34,835 nucleotides of DNA, taken from the sequence record SRR31156797_8894. One strand, given 5' to 3'. The notes beneath the pieces were generated by a model. It worked only from the letters and a program-made list of their open reading frames with translations. It searched no databases and was not told the origin of the DNA. This document shows, piece by piece, positions 4,038-34,744 of the stretch. How positions within the stretch are numbered: position 1 is the stretch's first letter; each line of letters starts with the position of its first letter. The translations under genes and the position numbers were made by a program.

Positions 4038-4065
4038 ACGGCTTTCGTATTTCTCAAATTATCGT

Positions 4066-4100
4066 ACCCCGGTTGTCCTTGCTGACAGCCGGGGTTTTTT
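4066..4100 (+). terminator. Rho-independent terminator
   Basis: ACCCCGGTTGTC-cttgct-GACAGCCGGGGT stem followed by a T tract, just after the 4037 stop. Confidence 0.8.
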
Positions 4101-4108
4101 ATGTTGGG

Positions 4109-4138
4109 TTGACCCATTTCCCCCACATCACGTAGTAT
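4109..4138 (+). promoter_or_regulatory. Putative sigma70 promoter for the second REC-TPR gene
   Basis: TTGACC-18 nt-TAGTAT between the terminator and the GGAG-preceded ATG at 4190. Confidence 0.5.
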
Positions 4139-4189
4139 GGAATTGGTGAGGATCAGCCGCAGTGTACTGAGTCAAAAATTGGAGAGAGC

Positions 4190-5647
4190 ATGCCTGGAGA
4201 ATCCGCTGACACCATCGTTCTTGATTTTATCAGGAAAGAGGGAGGAGTCATCGTCTATTTGTCCGATGATTTCGTCTTTACTCGTGCTTTGCGGAATATA
4301 GTTTCACGGGTTATCGGTCTGAGTGGGGACTCCTTACTTGCATTTTCTTCCATGAGCTCGGCCATGAAGAAATGTCTGGAATTGCAGGATCAAGGAATTC
4401 CCTGCGTTATTTTTATCGAAAGAATGCTCGACAACCGGCCTTCTACGGATTTTATCATCACACTTAAACGGGAATTTCCGGATGTGAAGATGGTTGTTTT
4501 GACGTGGGAGGCCACGCAGGAAACCGTGGCTTACTTTTTTGAACTGGGAGTGAGTCGCGTTTTGGTCAAGCCTGCATCTGCCAACATGGTCATTGAGGCC
4601 TTGGCAGAAGTTATTTCTCCTCCCATGGAGCTTAAACAGCAGATATTGTTGTGTGAAGAGCTTTTGGGAAAAGGGGAATATGCCGCAGCATTGGATGCGT
4701 CGGATCGCATTCTTATGACGAGGCCGGATAGTGCTCGTGGGTTGGTGCTGCGAGGGAATGCCCTCATGGGGGTGGAGGAGACCGACAAAGCCGTGCAGTG
4801 CTATATGGCTGCCCATGAAGTCCAGCCGATTTTTATGGCTCCGCTGATCAAGCTTGCGGAAGCCTTTAGGGAAATGGACGATGAACGAGCTCTTGCCTAT
4901 ATGAAGGAGTTGGACGATATCAGCCCATTGAATCCTGAGCGTAAAATCGACATTGCCGAGGAGCATTTGCGCAAGGGTGAGCATGAAGAGGCGGAAAGAT
5001 ATCTTGATCGAGGTATGGCTGTCGCGGAAAAGGAAGTCAGCAGCATGGTTGGCGATTTGACACAGCGCATTGTGGACGCAGTGACGGCCATTGCTCCCAA
5101 TCTGGCGGTAAAATATCTGAACCGTGTCATCGATACCAAACGGGTTTTGGGTCGGGATGACCTTGTTCATTTCAACCGTCTTGGCATTATTTTGCGAGGC
5201 GAAGGGCGATGGGCCGAGGCCGTCGAAGTCTATGGCAAGGCCGTGACCATTGCCCCGGAAGATCCGGTCATTCATTACAATATGGGGTTGGCTCATTGGG
5301 AAGGCAATAAGCGTATCGTTGCGTTGGAATGTTTTGAACAGGCCTTGAGCATTGATCCGCATTTTTACGCAGGCAGTGTCGGGGCGGCTTTGAATATTGG
5401 GTCGTTGTATCTGGATCTGCGGCGATATAGAGATTCCTTGCCGTTTTTTGCTCATGTTTTGGATTTGGACCCGGAAAATTCTTTGGCGCAAGTGAAGCTT
5501 GCTGAAGCGAAAACCAAAGCCGAAACCGAACCTGATCCAGTCCGGTCAGCCTTAGGGTCAGAGGGCGATGTCGATCTTAATCTGTCTTCGTCGGACTCAA
5601 GAAAAAAGGCGAAGAAACGAAAGCCTTTTACTAATCTGGAGTTGTAA
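4190..5647 (+). CDS. Atypical receiver-domain + TPR-repeat protein (paralog of 2703..4037)
   Basis: Same architecture and shared motifs (IFIER…PSTD.IITLKR…VVL…AYF.ELGV…KPAS; LD..SPLN.ERK.DI; FNRLGI.LRG.G.W.EA). Confidence 0.85.
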   Translation: MPGESADTIVLDFIRKEGGVIVYLSDDFVFTRALRNIVSRVIGLSGDSLLAFSSMSSAMKKCLELQDQGIPCVIFIERMLDNRPSTDFIITLKREFPDVKMVVLTWEATQETVAYFFELGVSRVLVKPASANMVIEALAEVISPPMELKQQILLCEELLGKGEYAAALDASDRILMTRPDSARGLVLRGNALMGVEETDKAVQCYMAAHEVQPIFMAPLIKLAEAFREMDDERALAYMKELDDISPLNPERKIDIAEEHLRKGEHEEAERYLDRGMAVAEKEVSSMVGDLTQRIVDAVTAIAPNLAVKYLNRVIDTKRVLGRDDLVHFNRLGIILRGEGRWAEAVEVYGKAVTIAPEDPVIHYNMGLAHWEGNKRIVALECFEQALSIDPHFYAGSVGAALNIGSLYLDLRRYRDSLPFFAHVLDLDPENSLAQVKLAEAKTKAETEPDPVRSALGSEGDVDLNLSSSDSRKKAKKRKPFTNLEL

Positions 5648-19718: not shown

Positions 19719-21677
19719 CTAGTACGCCAATCGTCCCAGAGATTTCATGATGAGCGTGCATCCCATGGCGAACATACCGGTCAGTCCCATACCGCAGGAA
19801 AATCCGGCTAGCAGGACTGGCGCGTAATGCCGCCACTCTTTCCCGTATTTTTTTAAGAAATAGAATCGCCCAAGCAGCGCGCCGATCACTTCAAGCAACA
19901 TGCCGTGCGGCGTTGATTGCCCCAGACCACGCACCACACCGTAGACGAGTAGCACAGGGAGTCCGAGTACGTTCAGCACCGAGTACATGATGAGTCCCAA
20001 ACCAAGACCTGACAGTACAATAGGACCGGACAACGCCTCGAAAAAGAGTGAATTGCCTTCCAAGGTCGAGGTCTGCATGAGCAGGGTGTTCAGTGCCTGC
20101 AAGTGCCATAATTCTTGAGCAAACGGATATTCCGGAGACGGGATGGGTGCCAATTGCCACAGAAATTGTGAAAATAACAGTGATGACACCATGACGATAG
20201 GGAAGACGATGATTTCCGCTTTGATGATTCCGCGCAGGCTTGTTCCGGTCAGTTCGATCTGACGGAATTGAACCGTGGCCTCTCCATAGTTGTGAATGGG
20301 AATGGGCGCGTACCAGATTTCAAGACCTTGATAGCCGAAGAATTTGGCGCCGGCGATGAATGAGAATTCTCGCACCATGGGCAGTGCGATGAACTGACCG
20401 GCTACACCTTCCATTCGGGCTGTGATGTACGAGATTATTGGCGTGTAGATGAAACCGTACAGCACGAAGAAAATCCATGGGAACGATGGCACCAGCCAGA
20501 CGCAGAATGCGATGTAACAGAGTGTTGAAAAAACATAGATGCCGATGGATACCCAGAAGTTGATGTCACCACGGCCTTCAGGTGGATTGAACAGGGCTGA
20601 GAAATCCAGCCCTTTACCATCCGTATTTCGGAATGATTTGACCACATAATAGATACCCACCGCGCCAATGGCCAGCCCCAGTCCGATACCGAAGCTCATG
20701 TAAAAATCGAAGTTGTTGGCGAACACTGTCTCAACGGTTGCCATGCCCGGATGCCAACGGTGCAGGACTCCATGTGAATACAGGATCGGGTTGGCGATGA
20801 TGGTAATGATCAGACCAACCAGCCCGCCAATGACCGCCCAGAACGGCAGGACCATGCCGATAAACACCAGTCCCAGATCGAACTGTATACCCGTTGCCAC
20901 TGCGGGCAAAAGGTCTTCGGTATGCATGGTCAATTCAATCCATGGAATGGGAATCAGCCGGATTGGTTCACTGAACAGCAGCCCTGAGAGTGCAGGCAAT
21001 AAGACATAGAAAAATCCGAACGCCAGTCCGATGACTCCGCCGATGGAAAACACCCGCCATTTCCAACCGGTCTTTTTATCTTCGGTGGATTCGGCCAGAG
21101 CCATGGTACCGAGTGCGCCAACCGGGGCCATGGGAAAGGGCAGCTTTTCCACGTCCGAAGTGATGCGATACAGAGAATATCCCAGCCCGAAGTGGTCGAT
21201 GCGCTGCACCAGTTGTGCGCCAACCAGCAGCATGATTGGCACCAGCCAGTCCGGGTGCATGAATGTGCGTTCCAGATATGACCCTGACCCCAGAGCCGGG
21301 GCTATCCAGTGCGGAATGAATTCGGTCAGTCCCAACATTCTCGCTGCGTCCGACTGCACGAGATACTGGTTCCACAAAAGGCCTTGGAATGGCGAAGCCA
21401 GTGCTGCGCCAGCCATATAATAAAGAAGGAAAATTTCTTGTTGTTTTAGGTGGGTGTATGAGCGTTTTGCAATCTCTGCAAAGAGGATGATCGTTACCCA
21501 GCGGGCTGCAGGACCGATGCCTTGACCAATGACGAGTTGCAAATACATAGACCCCGGCATCATCAGGAATCCTATGAAAATGGCACCAACTATCGTCTTC
21601 CAATCAAACCCCTCCTCGAACTTGTCGGGGGGCTTCATTAAGTCACGATACTCTTTCAGTTCTTTGTCGTCATACAT
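19719..21677 (-). CDS. OPT-like (oligopeptide transporter superfamily) polytopic membrane protein
   Basis: About 16 hydrophobic segments; EKLPFPMAPVGA motif; C-terminal APVLLAGFSCGMGL resembling OPT 'ASGL.aG' ends; start at ATG 21677 behind GGAGG. Confidence 0.65.
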   Translation of the reverse strand: MYDDKELKEYRDLMKPPDKFEEGFDWKTIVGAIFIGFLMMPGSMYLQLVIGQGIGPAARWVTIILFAEIAKRSYTHLKQQEIFLLYYMAGAALASPFQGLLWNQYLVQSDAARMLGLTEFIPHWIAPALGSGSYLERTFMHPDWLVPIMLLVGAQLVQRIDHFGLGYSLYRITSDVEKLPFPMAPVGALGTMALAESTEDKKTGWKWRVFSIGGVIGLAFGFFYVLLPALSGLLFSEPIRLIPIPWIELTMHTEDLLPAVATGIQFDLGLVFIGMVLPFWAVIGGLVGLIITIIANPILYSHGVLHRWHPGMATVETVFANNFDFYMSFGIGLGLAIGAVGIYYVVKSFRNTDGKGLDFSALFNPPEGRGDINFWVSIGIYVFSTLCYIAFCVWLVPSFPWIFFVLYGFIYTPIISYITARMEGVAGQFIALPMVREFSFIAGAKFFGYQGLEIWYAPIPIHNYGEATVQFRQIELTGTSLRGIIKAEIIVFPIVMVSSLLFSQFLWQLAPIPSPEYPFAQELWHLQALNTLLMQTSTLEGNSLFFEALSGPIVLSGLGLGLIMYSVLNVLGLPVLLVYGVVRGLGQSTPHGMLLEVIGALLGRFYFLKKYGKEWRHYAPVLLAGFSCGMGLTGMFAMGCTLIMKSLGRLAY

Positions 21678-21916
21678 CCAAGATGCCTCCGGCCCCCCCA
21701 TCCCTCTATTTTCCTGAACTTTATATCGCGCCTTTGGCGAAATTTGGTTGAGGCGGGGAGCCGTGCTTTATATCGTTTAAGTAATCTTTATCTTATTTAT
21801 TACATCTGCGCGAAATCGTACACGAACTTCTTAAGGCCCTCGGCCTTAAGCCGCCAGAGGCGAAATCACCTATCAAATCCGCCGACAGGCGGTCTTACCT
21901 TTCCTCATTCCCGCCA

Positions 21917-23923
21917 CTACAACGGGAATACATTATAACTTTGTTCGTTGAACAATCCGATCATGGCCCAGAAACCACCCATCAGGAAATCGCCGAGTAT
22001 GAGTCCTATGAACAGGAAACGGACTCGATTGAACAGACTGGTCCCGCCGTAATGCAAGACTAGATGGTTACACATCCAGCCGAGGAAGAATGGGAACCAG
22101 AGTATCTTCATACCAGCCGAATAAGCGGCCAGGTAGCCGAGCGGATGCAATGGCCACCATGGGAATTTATAATAGCAGAAAATCAAGATGAACATGGCGA
22201 GCGCGCCGAATCCGGCATAGGTGATGAGCCATTCGTTGGGGCCGGTGGGTTGGTCCACGAGTCGCTGTGCATTTTCGTAGTTGGCGAGCACAGTCTGTGT
22301 AGCCCAATCAAGATTGAGTTCTCTCAGGCCGTATTTGTAGCCGAGATAGAGCATGGTCACGAACGCGGTGACGAGTGCGAGCACCAGAGATAGGCCGATG
22401 GCAACGAGTACGAGGTTGCGTTTCGGGGTTTCCTGTCGAATCTTTGAGCCGTGGAAAAGTGTTGGCGCAATGGCCTCACGCACGTCGAGGAACAGGACTT
22501 TTTGCATGACAGCGGTGGCTGCCACACCCACGGAACCGAAAAAGCCGGTGCCGAACAGTCCCATAAGACCATCAGATGGCGCGGCAGTGAGTGTGAAATA
22601 TGGCAGTCCACCCTGACAGACCAGACGGCTGGTCACCAGTGTGACGATAAGAAATGCGCAGGGCAGGAGTACGGCGGCCAGAAGCGGGAGGCCGAACCAC
22701 CAGCCCCAGGCCATGAGAAAGATCATGCCGATAAAAAGTCCCCAAAGCGGCCATATGGGCGGTCCCCATTCGTCGGGGATCGTGTCGAATTTACCTTTTC
22801 CTTCCAATTCAGTGCTGTGGCAGGTCGGGCGCAGGAAACAGATGAAGGTTTCCTTGAGGTGATGTCGAGCCAGCCAGATGAGGAAGATGAAAAAGATGGC
22901 GTATGCGCCGATCACCTGTGCACCTTCGGGGCGGGCAAGGTCTGGACCGAAGGTGGTGCCGAGCGCGGCTTCGGGAAGCTGCCACCCGAGGATGTAGAGG
23001 AGTCCGAAAAGCAGTCCGGCCATGAGATGAAACACCCACATGGAAAAGGATATCTGGCGGGTTGTCAGGAAAGCGAATCCGATAAACGCCGGGATGATGT
23101 AGAGTTTGAGTTTGTAGAAACCGGAAAAAAGACCGAATTTGGGGAAATATGACCCGGCCAAAATGAGTGTCGGTATCTGCGGGACGGATGGGTAATAGAA
23201 TTGCAGCCCGTTGATGAGGTGCAACGCTCCGGCCATGGTCAGTCCGATGAGCAGATAGTTGTTGGACCACCATGAAATGAATTGTTTCTGGTCCAATGCG
23301 TCTCCCATGATTATGGGGACGCTCACCATCGGGAAGTGGACCCGTTCGTTAACAACCCACTGGCGGCCGAAAAGGGTCATCAGGCAGATCATGACGAAGA
23401 AGGAGCCGAGAATGAACAGTGACCAGACGAGCAAAGTGGGCAACCAGACACCCCATGGGATGGCTGACAGAACTGCGGCGACACCCATTTCGTTGCCGCC
23501 GTCCAGTCCTTCGAAAAACAGGCTGACCGCTTCGGTTGATTGCGGGAACCATGATTGCGGCAGAAGCGGCGTCAGGACTTCGGTCCAACGATAGGCATCC
23601 TTGGCAAACCGTTCTGGGGCCGTGATGTTGATGAAAAAGGTTTCGGTGAGACCGGCAAAGCCGATAGCCGTGAACAGGGCCATCATCAGCCATATAACGA
23701 GCAGTTCAACCCCGGAAAAGAATGGCGGACGTTTGCTGAGTCTGGAGGAAAAGGCATCGAACACGAACAACCATGTTACGATGAAGAATGGGGCCATGGG
23801 GAAATGCCCGCCGCCCATGGGCGTGTTGTGCAGGACCGTGTTGTTCAGCGGCGTGAAAATACACAAGGTTAGGCCAAGGAGCAGGCCGGTCAGGAGCGCG
23901 CGGAGGCGGAGTCGTCCGTTCAT
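21917..23923 (-). CDS. Large polytopic membrane protein (DUF6785/DUF6784-like, OPT-related)
   Basis: About 16-17 TM segments; QW…ERVHFPMV, FPWWPLHPLGY, Y.G..L…R.LFIGLILGDF motifs; ATGA overlap with the upstream giant gene. Confidence 0.65.
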   Translation of the reverse strand: MNGRLRLRALLTGLLLGLTLCIFTPLNNTVLHNTPMGGGHFPMAPFFIVTWLFVFDAFSSRLSKRPPFFSGVELLVIWLMMALFTAIGFAGLTETFFINITAPERFAKDAYRWTEVLTPLLPQSWFPQSTEAVSLFFEGLDGGNEMGVAAVLSAIPWGVWLPTLLVWSLFILGSFFVMICLMTLFGRQWVVNERVHFPMVSVPIIMGDALDQKQFISWWSNNYLLIGLTMAGALHLINGLQFYYPSVPQIPTLILAGSYFPKFGLFSGFYKLKLYIIPAFIGFAFLTTRQISFSMWVFHLMAGLLFGLLYILGWQLPEAALGTTFGPDLARPEGAQVIGAYAIFFIFLIWLARHHLKETFICFLRPTCHSTELEGKGKFDTIPDEWGPPIWPLWGLFIGMIFLMAWGWWFGLPLLAAVLLPCAFLIVTLVTSRLVCQGGLPYFTLTAAPSDGLMGLFGTGFFGSVGVAATAVMQKVLFLDVREAIAPTLFHGSKIRQETPKRNLVLVAIGLSLVLALVTAFVTMLYLGYKYGLRELNLDWATQTVLANYENAQRLVDQPTGPNEWLITYAGFGALAMFILIFCYYKFPWWPLHPLGYLAAYSAGMKILWFPFFLGWMCNHLVLHYGGTSLFNRVRFLFIGLILGDFLMGGFWAMIGLFNEQSYNVFPL

Positions 23924-26900
23924 GCTGCCCCCTCTTCGTCGTTCAGTTCTTTTGCAATGGTTCGGTTCATGTCTTTAGCGTAACTGTCCACGGCTTGGTC
24001 ATCCAGAGAACGCCATGCCAGCAGTTGTTTGCGGAGGTCATTGAGGAAGTTCCTGTTCAGGTTTTCCCACGCCTTGTGCTCCCCAGCCTCACGGTGAAGG
24101 ATGACTTTGATCTGCCGGAATCCGGTGTAGAGGTCAGACGGGCAGAATACGAGTTTCACTTTTTGGCGTACCCCGAAATCGAACGGAGCAAGCCAGACGC
24201 GCAAGTCCATGGAAAAGCAGAGATCATCAGGGATGGGAATATCTTCGGACACACCGCTGACAAGGCCGGTGTTGGCCTCGACTTGTTCGAGGTCCAGGAA
24301 GTTGCATTGCATGTCATCGGTACAGAACGCGCCATGCGAGACATCGTGATGGGCCATGTAATATTCGTGCAGGAATCCACCTGCGGAGTTGATTTCACGG
24401 AGTTTGATAAGGAAAGGCAGGATTACAACCAGTTCGTTGCCTTTGGCTTTGGGCATGCTCCATGATTTGTTCACGTCCGGGATGGCGATATTGGCCGCGA
24501 CTTTAGCCGGATAGATGGCTGAGATGAGTACCACGCCGATGACCAGAATCATGGCGGCTACACCGGCGGTTGAAGAATAGTTGGCGGTCATGCCAGCCCA
24601 GAGCGGTGTTCCGGCGAGGAATGCCGAAGATATCTGGGCCAGAAGATAGCCGACCACCACAGAAATGACAGCAAAGGCGAGTGCTTCTGCAATGAACAGG
24701 AAGGCTACGTGCGGTGGAGCCAATCCGACCGATGTGTAGACTGCGATTTCCGGTTTGCGCTCATAGACTGAACCGATCATGGTGTTGAGTACGATCAATA
24801 TGGAGATGCCGAGGGGGATCAGGATGTTGGCCATGCCTGAATAGTTGACGGCGTCGGATGCGAAATAGAGCGAGGTGCCGTTTGGACCGCCCCGGAACAA
24901 GAGCATGCCGAATCGGTCGCCCATGTCGTCGGTTTGAGCAAGAGTGGCGTTGTCCGGTTTGACGGCGATACCTTTGAGTCTGCCAGCCCTGAGAGACAGC
25001 AGCATTTCGGCTGGCATGAGTATGGTTTCCGAACCGGGGATGTGTTGGTAGCGGGATTCGGTAGTGACCACATCTTCGCCGTTTTCAATGGCTTCGGCTT
25101 CAACTTCGGACAATTGGGTGGCTGCCTGATTGGGGAAGATGATGGGCGTTATGGGCTCGCCGTCGAGGTCCGGGTGATCGTTCAACCCTTCATCGCTGAA
25201 AACGCCGACAAGGGTGATTTTGGCTCCCCACGTTATGAGCGTATTGCGTTCGGGGTCGAGCGGGTCTGCGCCTAACTGATTCGCCATGCGTTCGGACAGC
25301 ATGACGACATTACGTTCGCCTTCCTTGAACCAGCGCCCCTTGATCAGAATGCGATCCAGTCCACTGACTTGCGGTTCGAGATAAGAGAGCCCCACCAGAC
25401 CACGAGCCTGTGCGGTTTTGTCGCCAAGGGAAATCGGGATGAGCGGTGCGCGGGATTTGTCCGCCGTGAAGCCGGTGTCATACCATGCACGGGGAGCGAC
25501 AACGCCCTTTCCGGCAAAGGCTGTTTCCACCACAGATAAGGCTTCTGCGGGGACATCCTGCCAGTTGAGATATTTGAGCATCAGGCCGGAGTAGGAGGCT
25601 TTGTCGCTGAACTGTGCCCACCCTGCCTGTCGCACGGATTTAACCGTGGTGAAGTTCATGATGGTGAAGGTAAGGATAACCAGCGTGGCAAAGGTCAGGA
25701 ACGTGCGTACCGGGCGGCGTTTCAGGTTGCCCACACCGAGCACAAAGGCCGCACCGAATGCAGCGGCAGGGCTAATGCCAGTCAGCTTGATATGGGCTGA
25801 TCGCTTCTGGAGTTCCACCATTTCACGCTCGAATCGGAAGAATATGATGAGCGACACCAAAAGTGATAGCGCGAGAATGAAGAACGCGAGTATGACCACC
25901 ATTGGTGAATAGGTCAGCTGGAAAGCGGGGTGGACGAAATAGACCACACCGATGATCAGCGTCAGGAACCCGAGGAAAGCGACAATTCGTTTTTTGATAT
26001 CCACGAATGAGAAAAAGAGTCGCTCCATGCAATAGGCGAACGGCACAAACAGGGCAACATAGAAGAGTACGCCGATGAGGACGTCTTTTTGGGTCTTGTC
26101 CACATCGTTGTACACCCGGCTTGCCTTGGATAGGGAGGCTCTCGCTGCTTCAACAAATTTATCCCATTGCTTTTCGGTTTTGAACTTTCTGGCTTGAGCC
26201 AGTTCTTCATCTCCTTGTCTGCGCAGGTCCCGGATGCGTTCGTTGATGATGCCTTTCTGTTCCAGATTGTCGATGCGCGGACCGATCAGTCCCCACATGT
26301 CTATGGCTGCCTGAAATTCTGTCATGGGTATCACCGGCCACTGACGAGCAATGAAGCCGAGTCCCTGCGGATGGTCTTCATCCGTGTTCAGAAGCAGGAC
26401 CTTTTTATCCAGTACCGTGTCGGATAATGTAAGTTTGATGGGAGTATCCGGCTCAAGGAACAACGTACCCAATGTGGATTTGCGTGTGTCCATGCGGCTG
26501 TACCAATAGCTGACCGGCGGGGCTTCGGTGCGGCCATCAATAAGTGTGGGCCGATAAAGAAATTTGAAGGTCCGCGGGTCGAACATATTGAACAGCGTGG
26601 TCTGGGTACAACTGAAAAGGATAAGATCCGTTGCCTGCACGTCCCGTTTCAGCTTGATACGATACGCGGACTTGCCGGTTTTGGGCTTGTCGATGGCCCA
26701 ATCCGCCAGCCCTGACAGTTCATTGAATTTGAACGCTTCAACAACAGCCTTGTGATAGCTGACTTTCTTGTTGGCGAGGCCGGGAATGCGGAAATTCCCT
26801 TGCGTGTCGACCATGCCGTAGTTGCGGGTTTGCCATTGGAAGGCGAGAACGACCATGCCTGTTCCGGGCCTGTCCGGGAATATTTCACCTTTTCTGAGGA

Positions 26901-28797
26901 GATTGGCGCGTCCTTCAATGGTGACGAAGCGGTTTTTGTTCCGTTTGCCTGCATCGGCGATTGGGTCATTGGCCAGAGCGTCGAGCAGGGATGTCACAAG
27001 TGTGGTCTGTTGAGCCAGAAAGTCGAAATCAACACGGTCAACCGTGTCATAGGGCGTACCCCAGGCGGGACGGACATCGTGCACTGTTGCCAGAGTCAGT
27101 CCGGGGAATCCGGCCAGTGCCATGGGTTCACCACCCAGTTCCGGGGTGTCGGGCAAGTAACTTTGCCATGCGCGTTTTCCCGGACGCAAGGTGTCGCTGA
27201 AAAGTTTTGCGACATCGTTGTTTGATATTTCAAGTTTTTTGACGGCATCCTTCATGACCGTATCCAAAGGGCGGAAAAATGCGGTTCGATTGATGGACGG
27301 TTTGAGGTCGATGAGCCATCCCTTGTCGAATCCGCCAACACCGTTACCGTGGCTGGACAAGAAGAGTGACACATGGGCGGCAATGGGAGATTCGCCGATG
27401 GTTTTACGCAGTTTCAGGGCTGAGTTGACGTCTTTGAGTTGACCAGTGACGTCTTTAAAAATGGCTGTTTCATGGGCAGTAGCCGGTTGGATGAAGTTTT
27501 TTAACGCTGTGCGCTCCATGTCGGAGAGCGGGAAGTCGGCAGTACTGGAATTGATCCAGTTGAGCCGCTTTAATGTCATGCGTTCATGGGCCAGATATTT
27601 GATACGCTGCTGGTGTTTTTCTTTGGTGTCTTGCTGGGCAAGCAACCGCAGTCGCATCAGTTCTTTGGTTATATCATCTTCCTGATTGCGAACTACAGCC
27701 TTGAAAGCGGCCTTGAGCAGAAAACGATCACTCTCGTCTGCCAGATTTGTTTCGGAGAGAGGGACATCACTGCCGAGCATTTGCAGGGTGCGGTCCGTGT
27801 CGTGAACCAACTTTTCCAGTGATTCTTTGCGCTTGTTGAGGTGTTTTTCTTCGGTGGCTAGTGCCCATGTGAATTCACGCATGCCGGCCTGTGCCGAAGC
27901 CTTGCCGGCAGTGGCAACGAGAAGAACGGACCGTTTGGGTGTGTGTGTCGCGAATCCTTGAGCCGTATCCATGAGCGCGGTGATTGAGGATGCTTCGTCA
28001 GCCCCCGGCGCATGGCCGTCCACCAATGCGGTGGAGTCATAGAAAGTTTCAATGATGATGGTTTGCTTGGAAAGATCGGGGTCGCTGCCTTGAATATGGC
28101 AATATATCGTGTCTGCGGCGACATTGCGCCATGCCGCTTTTGCCGTCAGCCGTGTGGTGCCGAGGTGTTTGGGACCTTTTTGAGTGAATCCGGTGCCGAA
28201 CAGGGATTCGGCCTTTTCACGGGAGAGCCAAAATGTAGGAAAGTCTATTGGAGTTTGCTCGAATTTGTATTCGAACAAAGGCTTGGGTGCGTGTCCGCCA
28301 TCTCCACCGCGCCCGATGAATACCAGACCTCGTGCGCCGAGCATGGCTGCATTATTCCAGTTTTTACCGGAATCCATGTCCATGAGAACAATGGAACCTT
28401 GCACACTTAGTCCGTTGAAGTCAGAAACTCGGCCTTGTCCGACATAGATGAGCGGGCCGTTGATGCCGGGTGGCATGACGGCTCCAGGAGAGAGCGCATT
28501 GATTTGTAATTGCCTGAGTTCTACAGTCTGCCCAGATTCTTCAAAGGTCAGATGTGCTCCCATTTTGACGGGAACAGGGATGTGGAATGACTGGCGTCCT
28601 ACAGTTGCGTTGGGCAAAATCTTTTTGAATTCGGCTTCCACCATGTCTGCGGCTTTGGCAGCACCGGGGGTGCCGAGAGATCGGTCTTCAAGAGAGCTGA
28701 GCTGGCGCAGGAAATCCACGCCGTTGGCACGGGCCGGGAGCACTGTCGCCATAATCATGGCGAGACAGAGCAGGAAACGCAGTCCGATACGCGCCAT
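23920..28797 (-). CDS. 1625-aa fusion: signal peptide, PA domain, degenerate M28-peptidase-like domain, beta-sandwich, TM bundle, MacB-type periplasmic domain and FtsX permease
   Basis: Signal peptide …PARA; PA 'GPLIYVGQG…GSIVLM…AAMLGARGLVF'; M28-like 'FYDS…APGADEASS'; MacB 'GRWF…VVMLSERMANQLG'; FtsX 'LNTMIGSVYERKPEIAVYTSVGL…FIAEAL'. Confidence 0.8.
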   Translation of the reverse strand: MARIGLRFLLCLAMIMATVLPARANGVDFLRQLSSLEDRSLGTPGAAKAADMVEAEFKKILPNATVGRQSFHIPVPVKMGAHLTFEESGQTVELRQLQINALSPGAVMPPGINGPLIYVGQGRVSDFNGLSVQGSIVLMDMDSGKNWNNAAMLGARGLVFIGRGGDGGHAPKPLFEYKFEQTPIDFPTFWLSREKAESLFGTGFTQKGPKHLGTTRLTAKAAWRNVAADTIYCHIQGSDPDLSKQTIIIETFYDSTALVDGHAPGADEASSITALMDTAQGFATHTPKRSVLLVATAGKASAQAGMREFTWALATEEKHLNKRKESLEKLVHDTDRTLQMLGSDVPLSETNLADESDRFLLKAAFKAVVRNQEDDITKELMRLRLLAQQDTKEKHQQRIKYLAHERMTLKRLNWINSSTADFPLSDMERTALKNFIQPATAHETAIFKDVTGQLKDVNSALKLRKTIGESPIAAHVSLFLSSHGNGVGGFDKGWLIDLKPSINRTAFFRPLDTVMKDAVKKLEISNNDVAKLFSDTLRPGKRAWQSYLPDTPELGGEPMALAGFPGLTLATVHDVRPAWGTPYDTVDRVDFDFLAQQTTLVTSLLDALANDPIADAGKRNKNRFVTIEGRANLLRKGEIFPDRPGTGMVVLAFQWQTRNYGMVDTQGNFRIPGLANKKVSYHKAVVEAFKFNELSGLADWAIDKPKTGKSAYRIKLKRDVQATDLILFSCTQTTLFNMFDPRTFKFLYRPTLIDGRTEAPPVSYWYSRMDTRKSTLGTLFLEPDTPIKLTLSDTVLDKKVLLLNTDEDHPQGLGFIARQWPVIPMTEFQAAIDMWGLIGPRIDNLEQKGIINERIRDLRRQGDEELAQARKFKTEKQWDKFVEAARASLSKASRVYNDVDKTQKDVLIGVLFYVALFVPFAYCMERLFFSFVDIKKRIVAFLGFLTLIIGVVYFVHPAFQLTYSPMVVILAFFILALSLLVSLIIFFRFEREMVELQKRSAHIKLTGISPAAAFGAAFVLGVGNLKRRPVRTFLTFATLVILTFTIMNFTTVKSVRQAGWAQFSDKASYSGLMLKYLNWQDVPAEALSVVETAFAGKGVVAPRAWYDTGFTADKSRAPLIPISLGDKTAQARGLVGLSYLEPQVSGLDRILIKGRWFKEGERNVVMLSERMANQLGADPLDPERNTLITWGAKITLVGVFSDEGLNDHPDLDGEPITPIIFPNQAATQLSEVEAEAIENGEDVVTTESRYQHIPGSETILMPAEMLLSLRAGRLKGIAVKPDNATLAQTDDMGDRFGMLLFRGGPNGTSLYFASDAVNYSGMANILIPLGISILIVLNTMIGSVYERKPEIAVYTSVGLAPPHVAFLFIAEALAFAVISVVVGYLLAQISSAFLAGTPLWAGMTANYSSTAGVAAMILVIGVVLISAIYPAKVAANIAIPDVNKSWSMPKAKGNELVVILPFLIKLREINSAGGFLHEYYMAHHDVSHGAFCTDDMQCNFLDLEQVEANTGLVSGVSEDIPIPDDLCFSMDLRVWLAPFDFGVRQKVKLVFCPSDLYTGFRQIKVILHREAGEHKAWENLNRNFLNDLRKQLLAWRSLDDQAVDSYAKDMNRTIAKELNDEEGAA

Positions 28798-28800
28798 GGG

Positions 28801-29571
28801 TTAGGCCTTTTCCTTGCCGTTTGTCCGGCCAGTGAGTTTGTCGTCGATACCGCCGACGGTGATATCCAGTTCTTCACGCCGCTCCACGCGATCCACTTGG
28901 CCGTCGCGTACCCAGATTACCCGGTCAGAGACATTGAGCATCTTATAGTCATGGGTGGCGGAAATGATGGTCACGCCACGTTCCACTGAGAGCATCTGCA
29001 GCAGTTCGATGATTTCTTCACCCGTGGACAAATCGAGGTTGCCGGTCGGTTCATCCGCCAGAATGATGGATGGATCATTGGCCAGCGAACGAGCGACGGC
29101 CACACGTTGTTGTTGTCCGCCGGATAATTCCAGCGGCTTGTGTTGAAAGCGTTTTCCCAGTCCGACCAGTTTGAGCAGTTCAATACCCTTGTCTTGCGCA
29201 TCGTCCGCATTCATCCCGGCAAAGGTCATGGGCAGGGTGACGTTTTCAAGCGCGGTCATGACCGGGATGAGATTGAAGGTCTGAAATATGTAGCCGATCT
29301 TGCGGTTGCGGAGCCATGCCAATTCAAAGGCGTCCAGTTGGGAAATGTCCACTTCATCAATGAACACCTTGCCGTCTGTGGGTTTGTCCAGCCCGCCGAT
29401 CATGTTGAACAGGGTGGATTTCCCTGAGCCTGACGGACCCATGATGGAGATATATTCTCCGGCGAATATTTCCAGATCCACGCCTTTGAGCGCCTGCAAT
29501 TCGACCTTTCCCATGGTGAAGGTCTTTGTGACGCCGATGACGCGGACAATGGTACGTTTTTCTTCGCTCAT
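28801..29571 (-). CDS. ABC transporter ATP-binding protein, LolD/MacB/FtsE type
   Basis: Walker A GPSGSGKST, FQTFNL, LSGGQQQR, Walker B IILADEPT, ATHD. Start reassigned to ATG 29571 (MSEEKRT) behind AGGA. Confidence 0.95.
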   Translation of the reverse strand: MSEEKRTIVRVIGVTKTFTMGKVELQALKGVDLEIFAGEYISIMGPSGSGKSTLFNMIGGLDKPTDGKVFIDEVDISQLDAFELAWLRNRKIGYIFQTFNLIPVMTALENVTLPMTFAGMNADDAQDKGIELLKLVGLGKRFQHKPLELSGGQQQRVAVARSLANDPSIILADEPTGNLDLSTGEEIIELLQMLSVERGVTIISATHDYKMLNVSDRVIWVRDGQVDRVERREELDITVGGIDDKLTGRTNGKEKA

Positions 29572-29579
29572 ACTATTCC

Positions 29580-30251
29580 TTAATGTTCTGCGCGTATCGC
29601 ATTGATCGGTTCCATACGTGCCGCCAGCAGGGCTGGATACAGGACACCAAGCAGGCTCAGGAGACAACCGGCCAAAGTGGCAATGCCTACCGAACCGAGC
29701 ATGGAAAGAATGGAAAGGTCGTGAATTGCCGTGAATCCGAAACGAATACTGTTTGTCAGGAGAGAGACAATGCCTCCGAGAAGTGCGCCGACACTTGCCC
29801 CGGCCAACCCTTGCATGGCTGCTTCGAGCAGAAAGATGCGCAGGATCATTGAATCCAGTGCGCCGAGACATTTCATGACACCGATTTCAGAAAATCGCTC
29901 AGTGACGGACATGAGTTGGGCGTTAATAATGCCTACAGTACACACCAAGAGGGAAAGAATGACGATCCATCGTTCCTTGGCAGACATTGTGACCACACTC
30001 TGCGCCGCATCCACATCGTATCCCGCCTGAAGCAATGCTCGGGCTGCGTGTTTTCCACCGTGTTCAAGCAGTCCTGCCGCTATATCTAAATTAACCAGCA
30101 CGAAACTCAGGAATGAAACGGCAAGCACCAGGCTTGAGACCGTGATCATGGAACGGAAGAACCGAACCTTCAGGCTCTTGAAGCTGATCTCCACCGATTT
30201 GGAGAAGGGAAGCGAGATAAGGCGGTCAACCTTTCCTGCGGGAATGTTCAT
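29580..30251 (-). CDS. Minimal FtsX-like ABC permease (4 TM)
   Basis: RFFRSMIT N-terminal helix/TM1, GIINAQLMSVTERFSEIGVMKCLGA, YPALLAARMEPINAIR; very short periplasmic loop. Confidence 0.88.
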   Translation of the reverse strand: MNIPAGKVDRLISLPFSKSVEISFKSLKVRFFRSMITVSSLVLAVSFLSFVLVNLDIAAGLLEHGGKHAARALLQAGYDVDAAQSVVTMSAKERWIVILSLLVCTVGIINAQLMSVTERFSEIGVMKCLGALDSMILRIFLLEAAMQGLAGASVGALLGGIVSLLTNSIRFGFTAIHDLSILSMLGSVGIATLAGCLLSLLGVLYPALLAARMEPINAIRAEH

Positions 30252-30366
30252 GCGTATCCTTCGAATTCACTGATAAATATTCAATTCCTCCCATAGTAGG
30301 CCCAACCCGCATCCATGACAAGGATAAATGGACCGCAAGGGGGTGATTTTACGGAAAAGACTGATT

Positions 30367-31140
30367 TTATGGGGTATCGAATCGGCGAAGTTTTACGGTG
30401 GGGTGGTTTGCCACATGCGAAAGGCAGGTGTCGAGAAAGTCCATGGCCGCCTGATTCATGCGTTGATGATGGAGCATGACCCCGACACGTCCTGTCTGGA
30501 TGGCTTTCTCGAATTCTTTGGTAAGCGCGTCCCATCCTTGGGCTGGATCAGCTTCGTTTCGGGTGTGCAGGTCAACGTTGATGGGGATGTCCGGTAAGGT
30601 ATCGGGAAGTGGAACTTTGCGTTGCTCTCCGGCAGAACGGGAGACGCAGGCGTAGCTGAGTTCGATCAGAGCCTCGCCTGTTTGTGCGTCGAATCGATTC
30701 CACGGTGGAGTGAATGCCGGGTAGAAGGATTCCCCCATGATCGAGTTTAACCGGTCGCGTCCCCTTTTCAGGGCCTGTTTCTTTTTGGAGGCAGGACGCT
30801 GATCGCCGAATTCCGAGTTCTTGCCCGAGGTTTGGTGGCTGCGATGCTGCCAGCCGTGTTGATGCCAACAGAAGACCGGGCTGTTTCCGGCCCAATGTAT
30901 GAGGATATCCCAACGGGCCTGCGTGAGCCATGCCGGAGTGACGGCCATGTGGAGGGGGATGTTATACTTAACGAACAGGTCCATCATTTGATGGCAGTTG
31001 TTACTGGGAACGGCTACGTCATCGGCACGAAAGAATATTTCCGTTCCGGCCGGGGCTGTGTCGAGCAAATGGCCTATTCTTTGTATTCCGTCCGTAGACG
31101 GGGTGAGCCATAGCGATGAGATATGTGTTTTGACGATCAT
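30367..31140 (-). CDS. Polysaccharide deacetylase (CE4/NodB-like) family protein
   Basis: FFRADD, HQHGWQH, FTPPWN and VMLHH motifs of the CE4 fold; no signal peptide. Confidence 0.82.
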   Translation of the reverse strand: MIVKTHISSLWLTPSTDGIQRIGHLLDTAPAGTEIFFRADDVAVPSNNCHQMMDLFVKYNIPLHMAVTPAWLTQARWDILIHWAGNSPVFCWHQHGWQHRSHQTSGKNSEFGDQRPASKKKQALKRGRDRLNSIMGESFYPAFTPPWNRFDAQTGEALIELSYACVSRSAGEQRKVPLPDTLPDIPINVDLHTRNEADPAQGWDALTKEFEKAIQTGRVGVMLHHQRMNQAAMDFLDTCLSHVANHPTVKLRRFDTP

Positions 31141-31146
31141 GAGGGA

Positions 31147-32706
31147 TCAGGACTCCACGCCTTTGATGACCACCAGTGTGAGGTCGTCCTCGCGAAAGTC
31201 CGACCCGGAGAATTCAAGTACCGCGTCACAGAGTTCTTTCATGATGGTTTGTGCGTCTTTGTCATTGTTTTTTCGAATGATTTCACGGATGCGGTCGCCG
31301 CCGAACATTTCTCCGGCGGGGCTGTGCGCTTCCCATATGCCGTCAGTACAAATGAAAATGATTTCACCTGGCCCAGGCAGGTTCATGGTTTTTTCGTGGA
31401 ATTCCCACTCTGATTCGACTCCCAGAGGGATGTCTGCGCCTCTCAGTTCCGTGAACGTGTCGGTTGCCGGGGCATAAACCAAGGGTTGTTGATGACCTGC
31501 GTTGACCCACGTTGCGGTTTGTAATGTCGGGTCCATGACCATAAAAAATAAGGTCATGAATCGGCCTGTTTCACCGATGTCATGCGTTAAATGTTTGTTG
31601 GCCCGCGCGATGTTTTCCGTGGCCGATCCTGGCGTTGCTGCATTCTGTCGGATCACGGCCCGCCCTGCTGTCATGAGCAGGGCTGCGCCGATACCATGAC
31701 CGGATACGTCGCCTACGGCAACAGCCAACTGTCCGCATGAATCCAGATCGCATTGGATGAAATCGTAAAAATCACCGCCGGTTTCGTCCGAGAAAAGACT
31801 GACACCCGCGATATCCAGTCCCGGAAAATTGGGTTGCTCGGACGGCAGGAAATGTTGCTGGACCTCCTTGGCGATGAGGAGTCCTTCGCGCATACGGACA
31901 CCTTCACGCAGTGCGCCGATCATGGCGTTTGTATGCCCGGCGATAACGCCGAGTTCATCCGAAGTGGTCACGGGGACGCGGCGGGTCAGATCGCCTTGTG
32001 CTATGTTTTCAAGGACCATGGTTTCCGTGTTGAACAACAGCCGAAGGTTTTTGGTATAGGAAAAGATCAGGTTGACCACCATGATGAGCAGAAAGGCCAT
32101 GATGAAGATTATTTCAAGCAGGACCGAGCGGTTTAAAAAGCCCACGGCTGACATGGTGAGTTCCTGATTCGCCAGCCATTGCACGTCACGGATGATAACC
32201 AACAGAAGAATGGAAGTGATTAAACAAATGGTCAGGGTGGCCACAAAGGAAAATTTGCGTGTCATGGGTTTCAGTTTATGCGGAGGATCATAGTTGGCTT
32301 GACCCGCTAATGCGGTGTTGATGACAGTACGCTCTCGCTCAAGAGCGAGGTCCAGCCCAGCGAAGAAGCCGATGGTGAAAATCCCTAGCGCCAGTTTAAG
32401 ACCACTTTGCAGGATGGGAAAGCGGTAGCCGAATTGCAGGATAAGGGCGGCCACCAGCCCCGCGCAAAGGAACAGGAGTAGGTCCAACCGAAATTGGAGA
32501 AAGGCCTGCCGGATTTGCGGGGCGGTTTCGATCATCCTTTTTTGGATGATTTCGCGGACAAGATAGGCTGTTGCCATGGGGACAAGAATGACCAAACCAA
32601 GCTCCCAGACCGGGAGCCGTATCATGAAAGGTCAGACCCGGCCGCCATATATGGCCCCGCCAAGCACGGCGAGCAGGTAATAGGCCAAAGGCCGGATGGC
32701 GGACAT
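31147..32706 (-). CDS. Membrane-bound HAMP + PP2C/SpoIIE (RsbU-like) phosphatase; candidate selenoprotein (Sec25, TGA at 32634-32632), 519 aa with read-through
   Basis: Intact PP2C motifs (GGDFYD, GDVSGHG, NAGH, TDGIWEA, DDLT) and HAMP domain. The frame continues upstream of ATG 32625 through TGA to ATG 32706 (MSAIRPLAYYLLAVLGGAIYGGRV-U-PF), which has an AAGGGA RBS. A SECIS-like hairpin follows the TGA. Confidence 0.85.
32589..32634 (-). promoter_or_regulatory. Putative bacterial SECIS element
   Basis: mRNA UGACCUUUCAUGAUACG-GCUCCC-GGUCU-GGGAGC-UUGGUUUGGUCA: 6-bp GC stem with a G-first GGUCU loop 20 nt after UGA; UGACC/GGUCA can form a lower stem. Confidence 0.75.
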
Positions 32707-32842
32707 TGTCTTTCCCTTCTGCATTCAAACCGGTCCTTTTTTGTCTTCTATCCCTTTGCCAAGAGGCACGATCTTGTTTAATCATAAGTCAGTGTCCACC
32801 TCGTGGACAAGTCTTAATTCTGAAAAAGGCAGCGTCAAACCG

Positions 32843-33460
32843 ATGAAAAAAAAGTGCATGATTATTTGGGCAGCAATGATTTGCTCCGTACTGTTCTTTG
32901 GAACACCGGCTGTGGCCGGAGATGATTTCCCTACATCCCTTGCGGGGTTTTCTTTGGGGGATAATGTAAAAAAATATGCTGACTATTGCCACTTGGAGAA
33001 GGCTGTTCCCGGTTCTGACGCACCGTTTTTGAGTGAAGCCGTCATTAAGTCCGATGTCCTTCCGGGTGTTCGGGGGGGGAGCCTGATCTTTGGTAATTGC
33101 GACCACAAAGATGAACTTGTCGGTATCAAGTTGAAATTTCATGACCGCGGTAAAGGACTTTTTGACAAGTTGTACAAACAGTATGAGAAGAAATTTGGTG
33201 AGCCTGACAACTATGTGGGTGATGCTTTTAAGAATGTCATCGCATGGCAGTGGGTGTTCAAGAATGACAGCAAGGAAGAAGTCGCTCTGGTGCTTATGTG
33301 GAGTCGTAGCCAGCAGATGCGCCCCGGCGTTTCGATCAAGCTGACGCACAAAACTCGCGTGAAGCAGGAGTTGGATTGCTATTTGGCGATGGATAACGAC
33401 AAGAGTATGAACGGAAAGAAAAGCCGTATCAAGTCTCTCGATCAATACATCCCTCACTAG
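32843..33460 (+). CDS. Secreted/periplasmic protein of unknown function
   Basis: Start reassigned to MKKKCMIIWAAMICSVLFFGTPAVA/G (classical signal peptide); soluble mature part with three Cys; 2 nt from the next gene. Confidence 0.75.
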   Translation: MKKKCMIIWAAMICSVLFFGTPAVAGDDFPTSLAGFSLGDNVKKYADYCHLEKAVPGSDAPFLSEAVIKSDVLPGVRGGSLIFGNCDHKDELVGIKLKFHDRGKGLFDKLYKQYEKKFGEPDNYVGDAFKNVIAWQWVFKNDSKEEVALVLMWSRSQQMRPGVSIKLTHKTRVKQELDCYLAMDNDKSMNGKKSRIKSLDQYIPH

Positions 33461-33462
33461 GC

Positions 33463-34380
33463 ATGGCTGAATATCTTTGGAATGGTCTGGGTGTCGTCGC
33501 GCCTGACGAATGGGAACCTGCCGCCATCGAGCGGGACGGGTTGACTCTTGCCGAGGGTGGGCAGCCAGTATGCGAACTTAAGTGGAACCGCATTCGCGGT
33601 TCCTTTTCTTTTGAAAAACATATCAAGAAGCTCACCAAAGGCCACAAAGGAGCGGCCATAAGCGGTGTGGCCGATGAGGAAACTCCTCCAGCTTGGAATG
33701 ACGCCCTGAAAATATTAGCTGAATCCGGTCTCCGTTCTCAGAGCTTTATTTGGCAGGCTTCCGGTGTACGAGGCATTGGCGCAACCTTGCATAATCCCGG
33801 TACCGGACTGGCCGCGCTGGTGCAGTTTTTTATCCGTGCCGAGTCCGATGAAGATCGGGCCGCCAAGGTGTTGGCTTCACTTCGTGATTATTCGAGCGGC
33901 AAAAGTCTGCCATGGACCATGTTTGGCGTCACAGCACGAGTTCCGGCAGAGTTCATTCTCGACACATTTTCGTTTCAGCCTGGGCATTATCGTGTTCAAT
34001 ATTGGCGGCCAAAATCCGGTAAAATGTCAGAGCGTGTTCCGCCGGGGAAAGGGCCGGGAACCCAGCTTACGTTTGAACGATTTGCACCGGCTTCGGTTCT
34101 GCTGCGACACACCGGTCTGGCTGAATGGATAGCCGAGACCGTAAAAGAAACACCTGAAGTCGAGGCTTTTGCCGGTCAATCGTCGAGAGTCGCGTGGAAC
34201 AGTGCCCTCAAGACATCGTTACTTCGCAAGACATTACGGCGTGAGGTATATTCTCAAGGGCGGGCTTGGACGACTGAAACAGGGAACGCCATCCTTTCTG
34301 TGTGTGCGTCGGGGACAGTCCCTGCACCTGAAATTTTGTTTGCCGATATTTGTGGGAGTTACGCTCTTGTTCAAGAATAA
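33463..34380 (+). CDS. Hypothetical cytoplasmic protein with a probable internal two-fold repeat
   Basis: 305-aa ORF tightly coupled to both neighbours; 'WNGLGVVAPDEW' and 'MFGVTARVPAEF' open two similar halves. Confidence 0.7.
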   Translation: MAEYLWNGLGVVAPDEWEPAAIERDGLTLAEGGQPVCELKWNRIRGSFSFEKHIKKLTKGHKGAAISGVADEETPPAWNDALKILAESGLRSQSFIWQASGVRGIGATLHNPGTGLAALVQFFIRAESDEDRAAKVLASLRDYSSGKSLPWTMFGVTARVPAEFILDTFSFQPGHYRVQYWRPKSGKMSERVPPGKGPGTQLTFERFAPASVLLRHTGLAEWIAETVKETPEVEAFAGQSSRVAWNSALKTSLLRKTLRREVYSQGRAWTTETGNAILSVCASGTVPAPEILFADICGSYALVQE

Positions 34381-34744
34381 ATCGACAGAGCCTGTCATTT
34401 CGCGCGCCGAGGCCCTGAATATGGTCCCGGTGAAGAATAGGGCCGTGGAAGAGACTGCTTTGCCTGATGGTTTGGTGCGGTTGGCATATCCCTTGGCGAT
34501 AAAACCGTGGTTTGGACGGTTGGCTGAAAAGGTCGGTATGTGGGACAAGAAACCCATGATCAAACAGGTTGAACTCGATGAACTGGGAGCGTTTGTTTGG
34601 GAACGAATCGATGGCGAACGTTCTGTTCAACAGATTGCCGCAGAGTTGGCATCATTTTATGAAGTGCAACCACGCGAGGCCGAGTTGAGTGTGACTGCGT
34701 TTATTAAAACGATTGGTCAACGAGGGATTATTGGGTTGAAATAG
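34367..34744 (+). CDS. PqqD-family / RiPP recognition element (RRE) winged-helix protein
   Basis: ELDELGAFVWERIDGERSVQQIAAEL…AELSVTAFIKTIGQRGII is the PqqD pattern; TTG start at 34367 behind GGGAG, overlapping the previous stop. Confidence 0.85.
   Translation: MFKNKSTEPVISRAEALNMVPVKNRAVEETALPDGLVRLAYPLAIKPWFGRLAEKVGMWDKKPMIKQVELDELGAFVWERIDGERSVQQIAAELASFYEVQPREAELSVTAFIKTIGQRGIIGLK

Follow-up and report, generated by a model that had tools for sequence, protein, structure and literature searches.

A conserved in-frame UGA in a MASE10-HAMP-PP2C membrane phosphatase gene suggests an uncatalogued selenoprotein family

Does a UGA codon near the start of a gene for a membrane-bound signalling phosphatase end a short reading frame, or does it encode selenocysteine (Sec)? 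The gene, from a sulfate-reducing bacterium, lies on the minus strand of a 34,835-nucleotide (nt) stretch of DNA from sequence record SRR31156797_8894, the whole of which we call the window. A mechanical list of open reading frames (ORFs) has only 31147-32625 on the minus strand at this position, a protein of 492 amino acids (aa). Read along that strand, the same frame begins upstream with an ATG (32706-32704), followed by 23 codons, a TGA (32634-32632), the codons CCT TTC and the listed start (ATG 32625-32623), and it then stays open to a stop at 31149-31147. An initial annotation of the window had proposed that the UGA is decoded as Sec with the aid of a hairpin just behind it, and its coordinates for the upstream ATG, the TGA, the listed ORF start and the hairpin all proved correct on re-reading the sequence. 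We consider it highly probable that this is a true selenoprotein gene which annotation has so far overlooked, with Sec inserted at this codon. The features on which the argument turns are these:

31147-32706, minus strand: full coding sequence of the MASE10-HAMP-PP2C protein, 519 aa from ATG 32706 if the UGA is read as Sec at residue 25; stop TGA at 31149-31147
32632-32634, minus strand: in-frame UGA, the putative Sec codon (residue 25); the same column is TGA or TGY (Cys) in orthologs; the next base is C
32601-32617, minus strand: hairpin resembling a selenocysteine insertion sequence (SECIS), with a stem of 6 base pairs (bp), GCUCCC (32617-32612) with GGGAGC (32606-32601), and apical loop GGUCU (32611-32607)
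32722-32724, minus strand: alternative start ATG, abutting an in-frame TGA stop (32727-32725), with AAGGA upstream

Probable selenocysteine and cysteine at one column

We used the codon found at the UGA column in progressively more distant relatives to investigate how the codon is read. The nearest genome, G001, has 73% of sampled words in common with the window, and its ortholog is 99% identical. Among the 20 best loci from 41 related genomes, loci that belong to the genus Pseudodesulfovibrio and are collinear with the extended protein over residues 1-519, 13 have TGA at this column and 7 have Cys (TGY), so that all 20 carry one or the other within the motif G-G-Q/R-V-[U/C]-P. When 401 genomes sampled across the phylum were searched with the Pfam MASE10 profile, 12 matches turned up, spread over 11 genomes, and 8 of the 12 have one in-frame TGA; outside G001, the 11 remaining loci comprise seven with TGA at the Sec column (four with PP2C and three with class III cyclase outputs) and four with Cys (HD-GYP or cyclase outputs). 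A sample of 401 genomes of Desulfovibrionales contained MASE10 in 90, and by our count of the matches listed, 56 of 100 have one TGA and 44 have none, one of the 44 not covering the site. The position of the TGA was checked for 40 of these 56 and is at the Sec column in all 40 (the other 16 include loci already seen; G548, G547, G030 and G006 were left out). Sec forms have both PP2C and cyclase outputs. In all we collected 64 distinct Sec-type sequences from many genera; the Olavius delta-1 symbiont, too, has a Sec-type gene (L080), and a locus search on the PP2C motifs found the Sec/Cys motif in 6 of 80 loci (5 TGA, 1 TGC). The initial annotation had expected Cys rather than Trp, Arg or Gly in homologs, and a TGA conserved among relatives; the samples above bear out both expectations, the first being borne out also by all 7 full-length database proteins considered below.

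The two residues have replaced each other repeatedly. In a tree built without the columns of the trait itself, at least eight changes between Sec and Cys are needed, four of which are forced by well-supported (starred) branches, and Sec and Cys forms stand as sister pairs at L017/P0021, L018/L019 and L008/L007. The last of these, L007, is a Cys form nested among Sec forms which still has the hairpin, with one change in the loop, and we read it as a probable recent change from Sec to Cys.

Another way to view the UGA is through the RNA that follows it. The hairpin of the initial annotation, with its GGUCU loop starting 20 nt after the UGA, was confirmed at 32617-32601, the 20 nt lying between the UGA and the first base of the loop, and the hairpin overlaps the codons for L-P-V-W-E-L. 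In the 13 Sec-type genus sequences the third positions of codons +6 to +10 (L-P-V-W-E) have entropies of 0-0.39, against 1.4-2.0 at flanking fourfold codons, and in the seven Cys-type sequences the same codons range from 0 to 1.84 (mean 0.97). The synonymous sites of the hairpin are frozen in Sec forms only. The structure is also kept among relatives, with covariation. For the hairpin type found here (type A; 36 sequences, 34 distinct) 99.0% of 204 cells are paired, whereas slid registers pair in 26-66% of cells, and none of 500 shuffles reaches the observed paired fraction or covariation score. The covariation is seen at pair 21-31 (CG in 20, UA in 12, GC in 1 and UG in 1), in which the third, synonymous position of a Leu codon is matched with the opening base of a Glu, Lys or Gln codon; here, therefore, the protein sequence follows the RNA. 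A second hairpin, type B (GCCCCC, a 9-nt loop, GGGGGC; 21 sequences), is 100% paired, with CG in 18 and UA in 2 at one pair, and a third type occurs in three cyclase genes. Invariant loop bases are G25 and U26 in type A and G28 in type B. Folding energy was tried as a means of telling Sec from Cys forms and rejected, as the ranges of the z-scores overlap. The Cys-type ortholog L013 (G004) has a 10-bp hairpin directly after its TGC codon whose z-score of -3.39 is stronger than that of any Sec-type hairpin.

The nearest genome offers a direct comparison with genes of known type. In G001, at least five genes belong to known selenoprotein families and contain a single in-frame TGA, namely selD (L033), three fdhA genes (L034-L036) and a molybdopterin oxidoreductase gene (L037). 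Their hairpins have a GC-rich stem of 6-8 bp, which starts 12-16 nt after the UGA, and an apical loop beginning with G, as does the hairpin of the phosphatase gene. That of selD reads CUCCAG-GGGAC-CUGGAG, and that of the oxidoreductase gene has a 6-bp stem with its loop 18 nt after the UGA, the loop being GGUCU and identical to ours. The stem sequences differ from that of the phosphatase hairpin, for which SelB binding is predicted. We take the loop of the phosphatase hairpin to resemble that of Escherichia coli fdhF as well.

The machinery for Sec insertion is widespread in these organisms. A tRNA-Sec was found in all 41 related genomes (73.8-85.1 bits against a gathering score of 47) and SelB above its cut-off in 38 of 41, while selA and selD were present in all three genomes tested, selD being itself a TGA gene of Sec type. 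G001 has selA, selB, selD and tRNA-Sec, in line with the expectation of the initial annotation that selA, selB, selC and selD would be encoded.

The extended protein and the readings of its UGA

Pfam analysis of the 492-aa ORF finds MASE10, HAMP and SpoIIE/PP2C domains, but the MASE10 match covers only profile positions 28-186 (103 bits). With the 27 extra upstream residues included and the UGA read as a residue, the match runs over profile positions 2-186 and rises to 131.4 bits. The extension supplies the missing start of the MASE10 sensor domain, and the upstream hydrophobic helix noticed in the initial annotation is conserved as a part of the MASE10 profile. Over the eight codons that precede the UGA, Sec-type orthologs have a mean column entropy of 1.07 at third positions, 0.41 at first and 0.21 at second positions; variation falls mainly on third positions, which is the pattern of a translated frame. 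The domains of the extended protein are as follows:

32104-32679, minus strand: MASE10 integral-membrane sensor domain, residues 10-201 (Pfam PF20970, 131.4 bits against a cut-off of 27)
31903-32013, minus strand: HAMP signal-transfer domain, residues 232-268 matched (Pfam PF00672, 27.1 bits against a cut-off of 25)
31162-31734, minus strand: PP2C serine phosphatase domain of the SpoIIE/RsbU type, residues 325-515 (Pfam PF07228, 146 bits against a cut-off of 25)

An AlphaFold2 model from a 36-row alignment (mean predicted local distance difference test score, pLDDT, of 87.8) has long helices at residues 4-23, 33-59, 64-94, 98-133, 148-180 and 185-236, then a helix at 251-285 and an alpha/beta PP2C domain. 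In the HAMP region the model prolongs helix 185-236 and follows it with the helix at 251-285. MASE10 is thus modelled as six long helices, with residue 25 in a short loop (24-26) after helix 1. HAMP domains must be cytoplasmic, and with an even number of helices this puts the N-terminus inside and loop 1 outside; on this topology Sec25 would sit at the periplasmic end of helix 1, with the near-invariant residues S-G-x-K (101-104) and D174 on the same face. Foldseek matched the PP2C domain, with probability 1.00, to the RsbU domain of Rv1364c (E 1.1e-12), RssB, SiaA-PP2C (6k4e; template modelling score 0.83 by target length) and SpoIIE, and solved PP2C structures were also matched by sequence. 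The domain contains the stretches GGDFYD, GDVSGHG, TDG and EDDLT, which we take to be the metal-binding motifs of PP2C enzymes, and activity is predicted.

In the mechanism that we propose, the hairpin at 32617-32601 would recruit SelB with Sec-tRNA(Sec) as the ribosome reaches the UGA at 32634-32632, and Sec would be inserted instead of termination, giving a protein of 519 aa (or 525 aa) with six membrane helices, a HAMP domain and a PP2C domain. The selenol of Sec25 would be the reactive sensing group of MASE10, undergoing a redox change, forming an Se-S or Se-Se bond, or binding a soft metal or a sulfur species. Its state would reach the phosphatase through helix 6 and HAMP and act as a switch there, and the enzyme would in turn dephosphorylate a serine-phosphorylated protein of a partner-switching pathway. 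When 36 sequences spanning three output types are aligned, the C25 column is invariant, and the only other invariant columns of MASE10 are G113 and L122. To our knowledge, Sec replaces only reactive cysteines, and residue 25 is therefore most likely the sensing residue of MASE10.

Sec might instead be inserted for mainly regulatory ends, the UGA at codon 25 tying synthesis of the receptor to the supply of selenium without any special sensing chemistry of the selenol. The UGA does stand very early in the gene, where failed decoding would leave no receptor, and the frequency with which Sec and Cys replace each other implies that Cys can do the job. However, Cys forms would be unable to gauge selenium, and residue 25 is the only invariant residue of the first two helices and their loop across three output classes, which argues for a chemical role of the Sec or Cys side chain; we regard a mainly regulatory Sec as unlikely.

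A more conventional account is that the UGA is a real stop, that it closes an upstream ORF of 24-30 codons, and that the product is the 492-aa protein restarted at ATG 32625. All database entries of Sec-type orthologs are annotated as this truncated form, and an ATG stands three codons past the UGA in 33 of the 64 distinct Sec-type sequences. The restart codon, however, is not conserved, since 15 of the 64 have no ATG within 59 codons, and in the window there is no purine-rich stretch in front of ATG 32625 to serve as a ribosome-binding site, as the initial annotation had remarked. Moreover, the supposed upstream ORF corresponds to helix 1 of the MASE10 profile and, in all Cys forms, runs on unbroken into the remainder of the protein. 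Without it five helices would remain and, on the modelled topology, HAMP and PP2C would face away from the cytoplasm. Restart at ATG 32625 is accordingly given very little credence here.

If translation instead runs through the UGA to give a selenoprotein, it would start at ATG 32706, upstream of which lies GAAGGGAAAGACA, or possibly at ATG 32724. An ATG 30 codons before the Sec codon, which is the position of ATG 32724, is kept in the eight closest orthologs (L001-L008), and a start there would give 525 aa instead of 519. With two candidate starts the Sec residue is number 25 or 31; of the earlier assignment of Sec to residue 25, the identity of the residue is well supported by Cys at the column and by the conserved TGA and hairpin, and its number is open to revision to 31. 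We keep the number 25 throughout.

Translation through the UGA could also be the work of an ordinary tRNA (Trp, Cys or a near-cognate Arg tRNA, or a reassigned code). A UGA followed by C is a leaky context, and C follows the UGA in 64 of 64 distinct Sec-type sequences, but that C is also forced by the conserved Pro codon. Ordinary read-through would leave unexplained why homologs have only Cys, the chemical analogue of Sec, at the column and why the two alternate; nor would it call for a hairpin like those of the known-type selenoprotein genes of G001, in organisms where the complete Sec machinery is present (G001 and relatives). In addition, TGA ends 3 of the 24 long ORFs in the window, the phosphatase gene included, and is therefore a normal stop here. 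Read-through of this kind seems to us highly improbable. The last alternative, a pseudogene, nonsense mutation or sequencing error, has a negligible chance of being right: a single in-frame stop near the start of a gene does resemble a fresh nonsense mutation when seen in one sequence, but 64 distinct sequences from many genera share this TGA, their reading frame being unbroken and conserved before and after it, and contigs of four public runs (one sample) differ at 9 of 401 bases, none of the 5 differences listed falling on the TGA or the hairpin.

Several points weigh against reading the gene as a selenoprotein with a sensing Sec, or temper it. The presence of selenium in the polypeptide is predicted from the sequence evidence, and the sensing role of Sec25 is only a proposal, made on a model whose Sec25 loop is its least confident part (pLDDT 64 over residues 21-30). 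The Sec machinery was found in G001 and other relatives and is presumed for the window's own genome, and among the 56 TGA-bearing order matches the position of the TGA was checked in 40. As for the hairpin, it folds with a z-score of -2.17 and is equalled by 8 of 200 shuffles, so that by energy alone it is within chance and its significance rests on the comparison of genomes. Folding energy does not discriminate in general either (z from +0.44 to -2.97 in Sec-type sequences and -3.39 in Cys-type L013). The covariation falls at one pair per hairpin type, in counts inflated by the non-independence of kin, and an Rfam scan of 32400-32800 (E up to 10) returned no SECIS family, only four weak unrelated matches. 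Even so, the selenoprotein interpretation of the initial annotation emerges strongly supported, each of the refutation tests that it named having come out in its favour, that on the Sec genes for G001 and other relatives.

Genes around the phosphatase

Two genes run divergently from the phosphatase gene. The first (32843-33460, plus strand) encodes a secreted protein of 205 aa with a signal peptide, three conserved Cys residues and the motifs RGGS, NVIAWxW and RPGVSIKMT, and the second (33463-34380, plus strand) a protein of 305 aa. Both adjoin the phosphatase gene in every one of the 20 genus loci, whether of Sec or Cys type, and neither does so in distant loci. Neither protein has a Pfam family, and the only clusters that the protein Atlas gave for them are labelled "hypothetical" and come from Thermodesulfobacteriota; the two are candidates for a periplasmic partner of the sensor. 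At the end of the window, an ORF for a small PqqD-family protein (34169-34744, plus strand) is listed as overlapping the end of the 305-aa gene, and its real start is probably later than listed.

Downstream of the phosphatase gene and on the same strand lies a gene cluster (19719-31140, minus strand), the first member of which, a DUF2334/polysaccharide-deacetylase-like gene, begins 6 nt past the phosphatase stop. It adjoins the phosphatase gene only in the four closest orthologs. Next in the cluster come genes for an FtsX-like permease, an ABC ATPase, a protein of 1625 aa that carries PA and FtsX domains, a DUF6785/DUF6784 protein and a protein of 660 aa that has no family. The ORFs for the ABC ATPase and the FtsX permease (28801-29871 and 29580-30251, both minus strand) overlap by about 290 nt, and the ATPase probably starts further downstream, since its ABC domain begins only at residue 128.

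Within the window no gene for a STAS or anti-sigma protein was found, and the distant loci have no neighbour in common, their neighbours being an ABC transporter, a response regulator, a GAF-cyclase, a histidine kinase and a fusion of PP2C with a kinase-like ATPase. The fusion is found at L017 (G025; 3402-4430, minus strand), and likewise in G020 and G016, as a second PP2C phosphatase joined to an RsbW-like kinase-type ATPase and convergent to the MASE10 gene, an arrangement that hints at a partner-switching network.

Known systems and the place of a proposed selenocysteine sensor

Proteins of similar design are SiaA of Pseudomonas aeruginosa and the phosphatases of the RsbU/SpoIIE type, which have the same order of membrane part, HAMP and PP2C and a close PP2C fold. 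We know of none among them that contains Sec. By Pfam, the protein described here has no RsbU N-terminal domain. It was considered as a SiaA ortholog, and this was rejected on its score of 46.7 bits with the NCBIfam equivalog model NF038263, whose cut-off is 700. NCBIfam has no model for this family, and the protein stays below the cut-off of every NCBIfam model.

The sensor domain MASE10 (PF20970) was defined by Galperin and Chou (bioRxiv 10.1101/2021.11.05.467447), and according to that work no member has been characterised. The proteins found here agree with the family as described there, with a full-length profile match, HAMP next to it, and PP2C, HD-GYP or class III cyclase outputs. That source also mentions a conserved Cys "in the periplasmic loops", with which the predicted placement of Sec25 agrees, and we infer that this Cys is the Sec25 column. 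The words "seleno" and "TGA" do not occur in the main text of the paper, whereas the column is Sec, as we read it, in most Desulfovibrionales members.

Among selenoproteins, the closest precedent that we found is a peroxiredoxin fused to a distant PP2C-type phosphatase, one of the selenoproteins recorded from ocean-sampling metagenomes (PMC2398784). It is a selenoprotein with a PP2C-type output, and suggests a redox input to the phosphatase. In that fusion, however, Sec is in a soluble peroxiredoxin domain, whereas here it would be in a sensor embedded in the membrane and linked to the phosphatase through HAMP. The fate of the N-terminus has its own parallel in HgcA, whose Sec precedes the predicted start (Haft and Gwadz, bioRxiv 10.1101/2022.07.06.499078). 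The annotation artefact is the same, in that gene callers start after the UGA and both Sec and the N-terminal segment are lost from databases; the HgcA work, however, concerns a CU dipeptide and organometallic chemistry, as against V-U-P and signal transduction here. Of 30 database hits to the Sec-type protein, 23 begin after the Sec column, mostly with lengths of 490-492 aa (range 481-511), and are named as PP2C family, SpoIIE family or RsbU proteins; the other 7 are full-length and all have Cys. Most likely, annotation has missed this selenocysteine in dozens of species.

Most of the bacterial selenoproteins catalogued so far are redox enzymes, alongside some transporters and proteins that bind metals. 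None of the 119 prokaryotic selenoprotein families and subfamilies listed in 2026 (PMC13188914, Table 1) is a phosphatase, cyclase or sensor, and the terms phosphatase, PP2C, sensor, signal transduction and transmembrane occur 0 times each in the main text of that paper. In their main texts, neither the deep-Sep paper nor the 2016 survey mentions such a protein, and nor do the Haft preprint and the Olavius symbiont paper (supplements of PMC12013277, PMC5029168 and PMC1976440 being outside the scope), and no description of a MASE10-HAMP-PP2C selenoprotein was found in the literature, subscription journals being likewise outside it. A membrane signal receptor would be a new functional class among the listed selenoproteins, decoded by the ordinary bacterial Sec mechanism. 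Thus, from comparative evidence, we conclude that this is a real, widespread selenoprotein family, uncatalogued in the sources covered.

What the family means for these organisms follows in part from its frequency. The Sec type is not rare, accounting for over 50% of the MASE10 genes sampled from Desulfovibrionales, and it would raise the selenoprotein count of well-studied, selenoprotein-rich organisms such as the Olavius delta-1 symbiont. Recognising it corrects a systematic loss of the first membrane helix in annotation across many genomes, and would place selenocysteine in the sensor domain of a signalling protein. More tentatively, and on odds that we put well short of even, the two Sec25 residues of a receptor dimer, at the periplasmic face of the membrane, may join in a reversible diselenide, or may capture a soft metal or a reactive sulfur species, and so switch the PP2C, cyclase or HD-GYP output. 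Since synthesis of the receptor depends on decoding of the UGA at codon 25, such a pathway would also report the supply of selenium. A selenium-dependent switch of hydrogenases is known in Desulfovibrio; if the Sec25 switch and its reporting of selenium prove true, the receptor would be a candidate for a route by which sulfate reducers adjust expression to selenium.

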